A stretch of DNA of 64,000 nt from Candidatus Heimdallarchaeota archaeon (GTDB lineage Archaea > Asgardarchaeota > Heimdallarchaeia > Hodarchaeales > Hodarchaeaceae): NCBI GenBank assembly GCA_020353515.1, contig CP070695.1:2390966-2454965 (forward strand), read 5' to 3'. Positions within the stretch are counted from its first letter, which is position 1. The number at the start of each line of letters is the position of its first letter. Below, piece by piece: positions 55,117 through 64,000 of this stretch. The notes beneath the pieces are model-generated. The model was not told where the DNA came from. It saw only the letters and a program-made list of their open reading frames with translations, and made no database searches. A program made the position numbers and the translations under genes.

Positions 55117-55188
55117 CAGCCCCGCCCAGAATCGAACTGGGGTTATAGGATTCAGAGTCCTAAGTGATAACCGCTACACCACGGGGCT
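55117..55188 (-). tRNA. tRNA-Gln(CTG)
   Basis: AGCCCCG/CGGGGCT acceptor, TAGGA-CTCTGAA-TCCTA anticodon arm, CCCAG-TTCGATT-CTGGG T arm; discriminator G; no encoded CCA; no intron. Confidence 0.96.
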
Positions 55189-55233
55189 CATCATGCGAAT
55201 CATCATATTTAAGTCAAGTATAGAAGAAAGAAA

Positions 55234-55306
55234 CAGCCCCGCCCAGATTTGAACTGGGGTCGAGAGGGTCAAAGCCTCTTATGCTAGTCCACTACACCAC
55301 GGGGCT
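55234..55306 (-). tRNA. tRNA-Gln(TTG)
   Basis: AGCCCCG/CGGGGCT acceptor, AGAGG-CTTTGAC-CCTCT anticodon arm, CCCAG-TTCAAAT-CTGGG T arm; discriminator G; no encoded CCA. Confidence 0.96.
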
Positions 55307-62038: not shown

Positions 62039-63109
62039 TTGGCTACAGTAACTTTATGCTGGCAAATCTCTAATATCCTTTTGTTATTCACCTTATTCAT
62101 AGCTGTCCTCGGCTTATTAAGTCGAATTCATTGGATTTCGATTGGTCGTATCAGTAGATATAATGTTTCTTTTTTATTATTTTATATATTTAGTATTTGT
62201 GCGATATTTTTGCAATGGTTAGTTATTAATGGTTCTTTGATGTTCTTGCCGTCTTCATCAACCTATACTTATATCGCTCTTTGGTTCAAGGGGGCCTTAT
62301 GTTCTTTAATCTTGTCCTCATTCTTTCTTATCTACATTGGTCAGCACAGTTTTGTGATTAGAAAATTTTCGACATAAAAATACTATTCACACTTTATCGC
62401 AGTATTTTATTTCTTTTGTATTGGAATCTTGATCTTTTTAATATTCACTGATGTAACAGTAATTGATATTATTGATAATAGCCCCTCGTTCGATTTTAAT
62501 CCTCCTATTACTCTTGTTTTAACTGCTTTATATGGCTCACTCAGTGGAGGATTGTTCGCTTTTATCTCATTGCGATCGAGAATCCGAACGTTTAAAGAAC
62601 CAGTTAAGGATTTAATACCAATATATCCATTTTATCTAGGGTTCACTTTAATTGGAGGATGTTGCCTCATATTTATTGGTTTCATTATAATTTTTGATCC
62701 AGTTCTAGGTTCTATGTGGCCATGCTTACGGATGTTCTTATCTTCCACTATCTATCTTATCTTCTTATGGTTTCCAACAATGGAATCAATGTTTGAGATC
62801 TTTTTTCAAAGCCGTATGGACAGAATTGAAACAGTACTGGGTAGGGACAAAGTATTAGACATTATCGATCACGATCTAGCTAATGTTACACAGATTCTCC
62901 ATACATATTTTGAAACAATTCAACTATCTGATCAGGAGAGAGAGTTTTTAAAGAAGCAAGTTGACCGCATGAACAAACTAATAACAGAATCACGAGCTAT
63001 AGTGATACACGAAGATGATATGTTAGTACAGGAATTAATGAGATTTTACAAATCAACACGTGTTCAAAACAATCTTTTAGATAAATCCAAAACAAAAAAA
63101 GAAGCCTAA
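62039..63109 (+). pseudogene. Multi-TM sensor with a HisKA-like helix, interrupted by one in-frame TAA and lacking an ATPase domain
   Basis: ORFs 62039..62377 and 62429..63109 are in the same frame; the sequence between them is open (KYYSHFIAVFYFFCIGI); DIIDHDLAN H-box near the C-terminus. Confidence 0.65.
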
Positions 63110-63265
63110 AACCATTAATTTTCTGTACCGACTGGATTCTATAATACTTTCTTGCCATTTAATAGAATGGATGATTCATTGGGATTTGTAAATCCATTTA
63201 GTAAGGTTAAAAAATTCTTACTCATTTATTACATATTTTCATAAAAAACAGCAGGTGAATATTAG

Positions 63266-63886
63266 ATGAAAACAAATCAAGTAATAAAAATAATAATTCC
63301 ATTAGTACTCTTATTGGGTGCCGCTACTGCTTTTATTGTTGCGGTTATTGGTAGCCAGCAAGTGAATACTACAGCAGAGACTCAAGAGTCAAATCAAGCT
63401 ACTAGTGCCTACATAGCTTTCCTCTATATTGAAGGTGTTGATGGTGAAGCTCAAGCACAGGATCATGAAAATTGGATTGAGGTTCTTGCTTATTCCCATA
63501 ATGTTATGACCGCGGATCCAACAGGTGCAGTCCGCACTGCAGGCTCAGTACAGCACGCTCCACTTCGGATTACCAAAATGGTAGATAAGGCCTCACCTAA
63601 ACTGTACGAAAAGTGTGTTAACGGTGAAACGATCGTTTCAGTAAAACTGGATTGCTGCACAGCCTTTGGCGAAGACTTGAAAGTGTTCTATCAAATTGAA
63701 CTGCAGAATGCAATGATCACTTCAGCTCAAGATTTTGGTATAGTAGCAGGAGAAGGAATTCCTACTGAGACTGTTTCTTTCACATATGAATCCATTAGAT
63801 GGACATATTCGGAATTTGATGCTGCAGGTCAAAAAAAGGGAGATATACAAACACCTTGGATCTCCACAGAGACCTCAGAAACCTAA
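63266..63886 (+). CDS. hcp: Hcp (type VI secretion tube) family protein with an N-terminal signal/TM helix
   Basis: FLYIEGVDGE...HENWIEVLAYSH, HAPLRITKMVDKASPKLY..C.NGE.I, YQIEL.NA.I, PTETVSFTYESIRWTY; GGTGA RBS at 63254-63258. Confidence 0.9.
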   Translation: MKTNQVIKIIIPLVLLLGAATAFIVAVIGSQQVNTTAETQESNQATSAYIAFLYIEGVDGEAQAQDHENWIEVLAYSHNVMTADPTGAVRTAGSVQHAPLRITKMVDKASPKLYEKCVNGETIVSVKLDCCTAFGEDLKVFYQIELQNAMITSAQDFGIVAGEGIPTETVSFTYESIRWTYSEFDAAGQKKGDIQTPWISTETSET

Positions 63887-63913
63887 TAAATCAAGAAAAA
63901 CCGTTGACCAATA

Positions 63914-64000
63914 ATGAAAAAGTCGAAGACTCCTTTTTTAATAGTCATATTCGCATTAGTCGGTTGTACCTTGAGCCCATCTATAGCTAATCAACAAACT
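63914..64000 (+). CDS. N-terminus of a secreted protein (runs off the right edge)
   Basis: MKKSKTPFLIVIFALVGCTLSPSIANQQT; signal-peptide-like; starts 27 nt after the hcp stop. Confidence 0.6.
   Translation, partial: MKKSKTPFLIVIFALVGCTLSPSIANQQT

Follow-up and report, generated by a model that had tools for sequence, protein, structure and literature searches.

To our knowledge, Hcp (TssD) has been described in no roles other than those of a leaderless tube protein of the cytoplasm, a chaperone and a secreted marker for type VI secretion systems (T6SS). Its tube is about 9 nm in diameter. In orphan hcp-effector pairs, hcp lies outside the main cluster and a specific companion gene follows directly after it. 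Silverman et al. are said to have described Hcp in 2013 as a receptor and chaperone of small T6SS substrates; Hcp-ET fusions are a related case. Here we examine an Hcp gene with a hydrophobic N-terminal leader, together with the gene directly downstream of it, in a Candidatus Heimdallarchaeota archaeon. The two genes lie at the end of a 64,000-nucleotide stretch (the window; G000:C1:2390966-2454965, contig CP070695.1 of assembly GCA_020353515.1) of a closed 4.94-Mb genome. We propose, at a probability of roughly 55%, that they form an Asgard cell-surface module of two genes that works independently of the T6SS, in which an anchored Hcp ring and a type-I surface glycoprotein would form a binding or contact device.

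The window protein is a true, full-length Hcp/TssD homologue. It matches PF05638 with 126.3 bits (cut-off 23.5, E 1.2e-36) between residues 52 and 181, covering profile positions 1-129 of 129, and TIGR03344 with 88.4 bits (cut-off 58.9); the invariant residues of the Hcp family are retained. In an AlphaFold2 (AF2) model built on a 30-row alignment, residues 6-28 are helical, the linker is disordered, and the barrel has predicted local distance difference test (pLDDT) scores mostly above 90. A Foldseek search with this model returned 65 PDB matches at E <= 0.001, and the top 50 listed are Hcp proteins or engineered Hcp1 fusions. A. baumannii Hcp1 is the best of these (4W64, E 2.6e-14, 32% identity), 7FCF is also among the leading matches, and TM-scores by target lie between 0.69 and 0.88 against Hcp crystal structures. 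By sequence, the best PDB match is 7FCF (E = 2.5e-29). Homology to the bacterial T6SS proteins (4W64, P. aeruginosa Hcp1 1Y12, 7FCF) thus extends over the whole domain, with 32-34% identity to 4W64 and 7FCF. A search among longer proteins of 362-2000 residues yielded no fused or longer Hcp forms, which counts as weak evidence.

In comparison with T6SS Hcp, the window protein has a leader of transmembrane length, a linker and an archaeal host. Residues 1-8 (MKTNQVIK) are followed by 22 uncharged residues (9-30, IIIPLVLLLGAATAFIVAVIGS) and by a polar, acidic linker with an NTT sequon (31-47, QQVNTTAETQESNQATS). A database search recovered 38 full-length homologues of about 200 residues (query coverage 87-100%), whose named sources are all Asgard (Promethearchaeota, Hodarchaeota/Hodarchaeales, Heimdallarchaeota and Hermodarchaeota). 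All 38 carry either MKTNQxxRIIIPLVLLLGAATxFxVAVLxxQQVN(T/A)(S/T) or some variant of this sequence. With loci added from a survey of genomes across the phylum, the Asgard-type sequences number 59; a basic n-region and an uncharged stretch (median 21 residues, range 11-25) are present in 59/59, and an N-x-S/T sequon follows the helix in 39/59.

The leader is conserved to an unusual degree. Among 23 aligned full-length members, mean pairwise identity is 61% over residues 1-29, 55% over the Hcp domain and 31% over the distal linker. The signal peptide of the downstream partner, which serves as an internal control, behaves in the opposite way (38% identity, against 61% for the partner domain), and the Hcp leader is therefore constrained beyond a plain targeting signal. 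Across the 36 leader codons of seven relatives, we counted 79 synonymous and 66 nonsynonymous differences, the latter mostly swaps among I, V, L, A and T. Such a synonymous-rich pattern indicates that the leader is translated and under selection. At the locus itself, a GGTGA sequence precedes the upstream ATG by 7 nucleotides, which argues that this ATG is the true start, and an alternative GTG start at 63362 (residue 33) was rejected because the leader is conserved and translated across homologues. The hydrophobic leader named in a first-pass annotation of this DNA is thus genuine, being kept in every Asgard homologue, and the start does not fall downstream of the helix.

Start-site calls can fall downstream of the leader in public records, with the result that the leader is hidden and the protein resembles an ordinary T6SS Hcp. 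Such a case is provided by the Lokiarchaeia carrier Candidatus Harpocratesius repetitus, in which the annotated protein has 163 residues and no leader. The open reading frame (ORF) L030:1327-1908 gives a 194-residue, leader-bearing form like that of all relatives.

The h-region of cleaved signal peptides usually has 7-15 residues, and transmembrane helices are longer. Within the window's clade, the h-region has 20-23 residues, and this length, together with the unusual conservation, leads us to favour a retained signal-anchor for these proteins. According to the positive-inside rule, a positively charged flank stays in the cytoplasm. Lys and Arg residues lie ahead of the helix and the acidic, sequon-bearing linker lies behind it, so an N-in/C-out orientation is predicted. 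A class III signal of the archaeal type IV pilin kind was considered and rejected: such signals require a [KR]-[GA] motif directly before the hydrophobic stretch, and the leader reads ...QVI(K/R)-IIIP..., with no K/R-G/A in the alignment.

The partner ORF (L002:880-1554) starts at 63914, exactly 27 nucleotides after the Hcp stop, and encodes 224 residues. Its N-terminal signal peptide (MKKSKTPFLIVIFALVGCTLSPSIA) reads as a basic n-region, an h-region of about 11 residues and an SIA|N site; a Cys in this region is kept in the nearest clade only, and the lipobox is non-canonical. The body of the protein comprises a conserved domain of about 150 residues in which NST and NQT sequons are conserved, followed by a variable Thr/Ser/Glu stalk. 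At the C-terminus (TPGFTILSTVGIFLSTLIVLRFKRKK), PGF is followed by a transmembrane helix and RFKRKK, and the motif TPGFTILS...RFKRKK is kept across the family. By hmmscan this tail scores 21.6 bits against Heimdall-CTERM (NF045529), just under the cut-off of 24; in the genome search it scores 25.7 bits, and the partner is among about 30 ORFs of the genome over that cut-off (others include G000:C1:4271332-4271409 and 1694581-1694658).

The partner domain is modelled as an immunoglobulin (Ig)-like beta-sandwich (pLDDT about 80) and belongs to no Pfam family. Foldseek against the PDB returned nothing at E <= 0.001, a wide VIA-align search gave generic Ig/FN3-like sandwiches with a best Z of 5.5, structure matches in the ESM Atlas had TM <= 0.51, BFVD gave low-TM matches only and an Atlas feature search gave no usable match; taken together, these fold searches provided no functional lead. 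A word-based search found 33 family members and a profile search through 1.84 billion proteins found 48 representatives at 50% identity, all of them Asgard and 97-316 residues long. We predict from these features that the partner is an anchored surface glycoprotein in which a signal peptide, Ig-like domain and Thr/Ser stalk precede a Heimdall-CTERM-like anchor. A complex prediction for Hcp residues 47-206 and the partner domain scored 0.17 against a mark of 0.32, which counts neither way for binding.

Two groups of described systems resemble the partner. The PGF-CTERM/archaeosortase-sorted glycoproteins of Euryarchaeota and the Heimdall-CTERM proteins share its signal peptide, its Thr/Ser stalk and its tail of (T/S)PGF, transmembrane helix and basic residues; the partner differs from them in that its globular domain comes from a small family confined to Asgard archaea and unmatched in Pfam, and in that PF09721 is undetected in its genome. 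As in orphan hcp-effector pairs, a specific companion follows the Hcp gene, and its domain of about 150 residues is within the size said to fit the Hcp lumen. Unlike the companions in those pairs, it brings a signal peptide, a stalk and a C-terminal anchor of its own, would be exported independently, and lacks features of toxins or immunity proteins.

Pairing of the two genes is recurrent. Of the 30 Hcp loci returned by the phylum survey, 25 have the partner as the gene immediately after Hcp. At two Lokiarchaeia loci under the E-value threshold, Hcp is followed by a gene of matching architecture (signal peptide, domain, Ser/Thr stalk, transmembrane helix and basic tail). Among 21 other genomes of the window's genus, 17 contain the two genes together and the remaining 4 contain neither. 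Hcp was found in 26 of 400 genomes sampled across the phylum: in 17/21 of the same genus, 3/12 of a second family in the same class, 4/14 of a Lokiarchaeia family and one elsewhere. A second named Lokiarchaeia carrier, the cultured Candidatus Lokiarchaeum ossiferum, encodes the 189-residue NEF87_000442, followed by a 237-residue protein that lacks a Pfam match, and the genus members include the closed Heimdallarchaeota genome CP070760.1. In the latter, the partner beside Hcp (G065:C1:2370811-2371038) ends after about half of the domain (profile positions 2-76), and the other half (positions 54-152) lies at G065:C1:1008587-1008877, more than 1.3 Mb away; the gene is split or rearranged, or the assembly is at fault.

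Guanine-cytosine (GC) content is 40.9% for the Hcp gene, 35.4% for the partner and 35.8% for the genome, and 5.7% of genomic windows are as high as Hcp. The gene pair is thus not compositionally foreign. The closest leaderless relatives (165-168 residues, 32-36% identity) are flanked by tssC and tssA in full bacterial T6SS clusters, which hold DotU, IcmF, VipA, VipB, Hcp, TssA, gp25, TssF, TssG and TssK and, in one case, also PAAR. When a quick maximum-likelihood tree built from 79 Hcp domains is read without a root, one branch separates off all 19 leaderless bacterial rows. The leader-bearing form could accordingly have arisen once, in a tree whose bacterial sample is too small and narrow to name a donor. 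As judged from the homologues recovered, the leader-bearing Hcp family is Asgard-specific.

A separate set of sequences suggests that exported Hcp-like proteins may also exist outside Asgard archaea. At L038:6664-10748, on a Logan contig, a signal-peptide Hcp (P0060) is followed by a 430-residue protein with one or more Hcp domains and by a 684-residue protein, and the locus adjoins a restriction-modification pair and an integrase. Signal-like N-termini are present as well in P0059, a tandem double Hcp, and in P0061.

The genome that encodes this Hcp provides no recognizable injection machinery. It contains exactly one Hcp, and searches of the whole closed genome gave no match to VipB/TssC, Phage_sheath_1 (PF04984), Phage_GPD (VgrG), GPW_gp25 (PF04965), PAAR or T4 gp19 (PF06841), with ClpV not searched for. 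Control genomes were positive in every one of these searches, the gp19 control scoring below its family cut-off, and the E. coli control genome matched all four of VipB, Phage_GPD, GPW_gp25 and PAAR. TssC (VipB) was found in none of the 400 genomes sampled across the phylum. The 20 kb downstream of Hcp hold a GNAT acetyltransferase, an ABC transporter, TrmB, a WD40 protein, a radical-SAM maturase with a sulfatase, a major facilitator superfamily transporter and similar genes, none of them T6SS-like.

A functional T6SS inner tube is thus not what this locus describes: the protein carries a leader, no sheath, baseplate, spike, PAAR or membrane-complex gene is matched in the genome, and Hcp is paired instead with a predicted anchored surface glycoprotein. 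Nor does the genome match PF04984, PF06841 or PF04965, as would be expected for an extracellular contractile injection or phage-tail-like particle. The first-pass annotation had reported no sheath, baseplate or VgrG gene upstream in the window. That statement extends to the whole closed genome and, with the sequence past 64000 annotated, no complete T6SS or other contractile injection cluster follows downstream or lies elsewhere.

Table 1. Features of the Hcp-partner locus, in window coordinates
Feature	Position	Strand	Remarks
TATA-box-like TTTATTA, putative promoter	63225..63231	+	about 35-41 nucleotides before the start codon; read from sequence
Shine-Dalgarno-like GGTGA	63254..63258	+	7 nucleotides ahead of the ATG; read from sequence
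Leader-bearing Hcp gene	63266..63886	+	206 residues, ATG start (ORF)
N-terminal leader: basic n-region and helix, predicted signal-anchor (N-in) or long signal peptide	63266..63355	+	
Polar linker, residues 31-47	63356..63406	+	NTT sequon at 63365-63373
Hcp/TssD beta-barrel domain, residues 52-181	63419..63808	+	
Partner gene, start in window	63914..64000	+	224 residues; continues to L002:1554, equivalent of window 64588

The layout of the locus (Table 1) agrees to the base with the first-pass description of a well-conserved Hcp domain, a basic-hydrophobic N-terminus, an NTT-bearing linker and a signal-peptide ORF 27 nucleotides further on. Its larger suggestion of an operon of exported proteins survives in reduced form: a second gene of exported type is indeed present, and the operon comprises two genes, after which comes the convergent GNAT gene. 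Upstream of Hcp, at 62039-63109 (+), two adjoining TTG-start ORFs of 112 and 226 residues encode multi-helix membrane proteins; in the other genomes whose Hcp neighbourhoods we inspected, these two are not kept beside it. An Rfam scan places an adjacent pair of tRNA genes at 55117-55306 (-). Downstream, a 167-residue ORF at L002:4325-4828 (-) resembles only the C-terminal end of the 433-residue sulfatase at L002:12204-13505 (+); the full-length sulfatase lies about 8 kb away, adjoining the radical-SAM/SPASM maturase, and the shorter ORF looks like a gene fragment.

The module that we propose builds on what the data show: the Hcp domain is a true one, the leader is conserved and translated, the two genes are paired, and injection machinery is absent. 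Beyond this we infer export, an N-in/C-out topology, retention of the helix, ring formation, association with the product of the second gene and a function at the surface. An Hcp/TssD homologue would have gained an N-terminal signal-anchor, which the Sec pathway would insert N-in, placing the Hcp barrel outside the single membrane on a linker of about 17 residues that is probably N-glycosylated. By analogy with other Hcp proteins, the domain would most likely form a hexameric ring. The six N-termini would exit from one face of it, and the ring would lie flat on the membrane, held by six helices.

Engineered Hcp1 fusions offer a structural precedent for this arrangement. In the solved hexamers of GspE-Hcp1 (4KSR/4KSS), Vps4-Hcp1 (6AP1) and TrwK-Hcp1 (7O42), the fusion partner sits on the Hcp1 N-terminus and every protomer bears its N-terminal extension from one face, so six N-terminal tethers on one ring face are sterically acceptable. 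These constructs are artificial and fused to soluble ATPases, whereas the window Hcp has a membrane helix. Six retained anchors would fit one flat ring better than a long tube, and a tethered long tube is hard to picture. The second gene, presumably co-transcribed with the Hcp gene, would supply a type-I surface glycoprotein: its signal peptide would be cleaved, its stalk would be glycosylated, and it would carry an Ig-like domain and a Heimdall-CTERM signal for sorting or anchoring. The ring would stand beside this stalked partner or be bound to it, both within a glycoprotein coat that lacks an S-layer. A binding or contact device is the most likely role, in which the partner, or a ligand from outside, might use the Hcp ring as its scaffold or receptor, though our confidence in any specific role is low.

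The cell surfaces on which such a module would act have been described in cultured relatives. L. ossiferum has a single membrane and no ordered S-layer, and is covered by unidentified 'complex surface proteins' (PMC9834061). Cultured Hodarchaeales display, on protrusions, unexplained extracellular filaments of 15-25 nm with tip knobs of about 50 nm where partner methanogens are contacted (bioRxiv 10.1101/2025.02.26.640444). Any link between the Hcp module and these surface proteins or filaments is speculation, as is the first-pass suggestion of a surface filament, pore or contact conduit. An extracellular assembly built or nucleated by the exported Hcp with its anchored partner, be it the 'complex surface densities' of L. 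ossiferum or the knob-tipped filaments of Hodarchaeales, strikes us as a long shot.

Several observations weigh against an anchored module. The conserved VN(T/A)|(S/T) that comes straight after the helix agrees with the -3/-1 rule of signal peptidase I, and the helix may accordingly be cleaved. Lokiarchaeia homologues have signal-peptide-like leaders with h-regions of 13-17 residues and sites of the type VQA|V and VQS|T, for which cleavage is plausible. The Heimdall-CTERM assignment of the partner is borderline by hmmscan (21.6 against the cut-off of 24), and Exosortase_EpsH (PF09721) is unmatched in a genome with about 30 Heimdall-CTERM ORFs. The partner is also not universal, since family f6 has a different large secreted protein after Hcp. 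The f6 downstream signal-peptide proteins (L017, L024, L026) comprise a Kelch beta-propeller, a NosD-like beta-helix and one protein that lacks a Pfam match. If the leader were a long, cleavable Sec signal peptide cut after VN(T/A), free Hcp rings could form outside the membrane, perhaps stacking into tubes or filaments that the partner might decorate or cap. Head-to-tail stacking would be easier for rings free of six tethers, and the unexplained filaments of cultured Hodarchaeales would be candidates for such tubes. We hold this to be possible rather than probable. The h-region of 20-23 residues in the window's clade speaks against cleavage, as does a leader whose identity exceeds that of the mature domain, unlike the partner's signal peptide, and a cut after VN(A/T) would remove the conserved N-x-S/T. 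The reported filaments, moreover, are thicker (15-25 nm) than the roughly 9 nm of an Hcp tube.

Two further explanations would leave Hcp without a place at the surface. The protein could remain cytoplasmic, with its helix N-out/C-in or with translation starting at the GTG at 63362, and serve an unrecognised contractile system; a GTG codon does stand at residue 33, and the NCBI annotation of the Harpocratesius homologue is leaderless at 163 residues. This is very unlikely in view of a leader conserved as protein in 59/59 homologues across many synonymous changes, the GGTGA ahead of the upstream ATG, a charge distribution that favours N-in/C-out and the lack of matches to sheath, baseplate, spike and tube genes in the closed genome or to TssC in the 400 genomes. 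The gene could also be a relic without function, left from a bacterial hcp acquired by horizontal transfer, as its nearest non-Asgard relatives are bacterial T6SS Hcps and its presence in the phylum is patchy (26/400 genomes). We give this almost no credence: the ORF is intact at all loci and strongly conserved between Heimdallarchaeia and Lokiarchaeia, its partner gene is likewise conserved and is jointly present or absent within the genus, and the GC content of Hcp is near that of the genome. An anchored ring with a surface glycoprotein partner thus remains our preferred reading.

Our literature search found no paper that links T6SS-type Hcp to Asgard archaea, the Asgard papers retrieved with 'Hcp' meaning the hybrid-cluster protein by it, and none that uses the term 'Heimdall-CTERM'; the accessible parts of the supplements of the Hodarchaeales culture paper contain no mention of Hcp. 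This bears out the earlier suspicion that such a use of the tube fold is undescribed in archaea. The locus represents a genuine and conserved variant use of a well-known protein family, one that is apparently undescribed. Because these proteins are automatically labelled 'type VI secretion system tube protein', sometimes with the leader trimmed, their annotation could mislead the inference of T6SS in archaea. The occurrence of the pair in cultured L. ossiferum (NEF87_000442 and the next gene) makes the proposal directly testable.

Asgard cells rely on surface contacts with syntrophic partners, a classical S-layer is lacking in the cultured Lokiarchaeia, and the proteins of their surface structures are largely unidentified. 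Should the exported Hcp and its partner prove to form an extracellular assembly, a tube protein of contractile injection systems would have become a Sec-exported syntrophy contact organelle in the closest relatives of eukaryotes. More generally, the tube fold seems to have been put to new use on the Asgard cell surface, and a leader and a surface partner conserved across Asgard classes in the absence of contractile machinery imply a second, machinery-independent use of the tube/ring fold.

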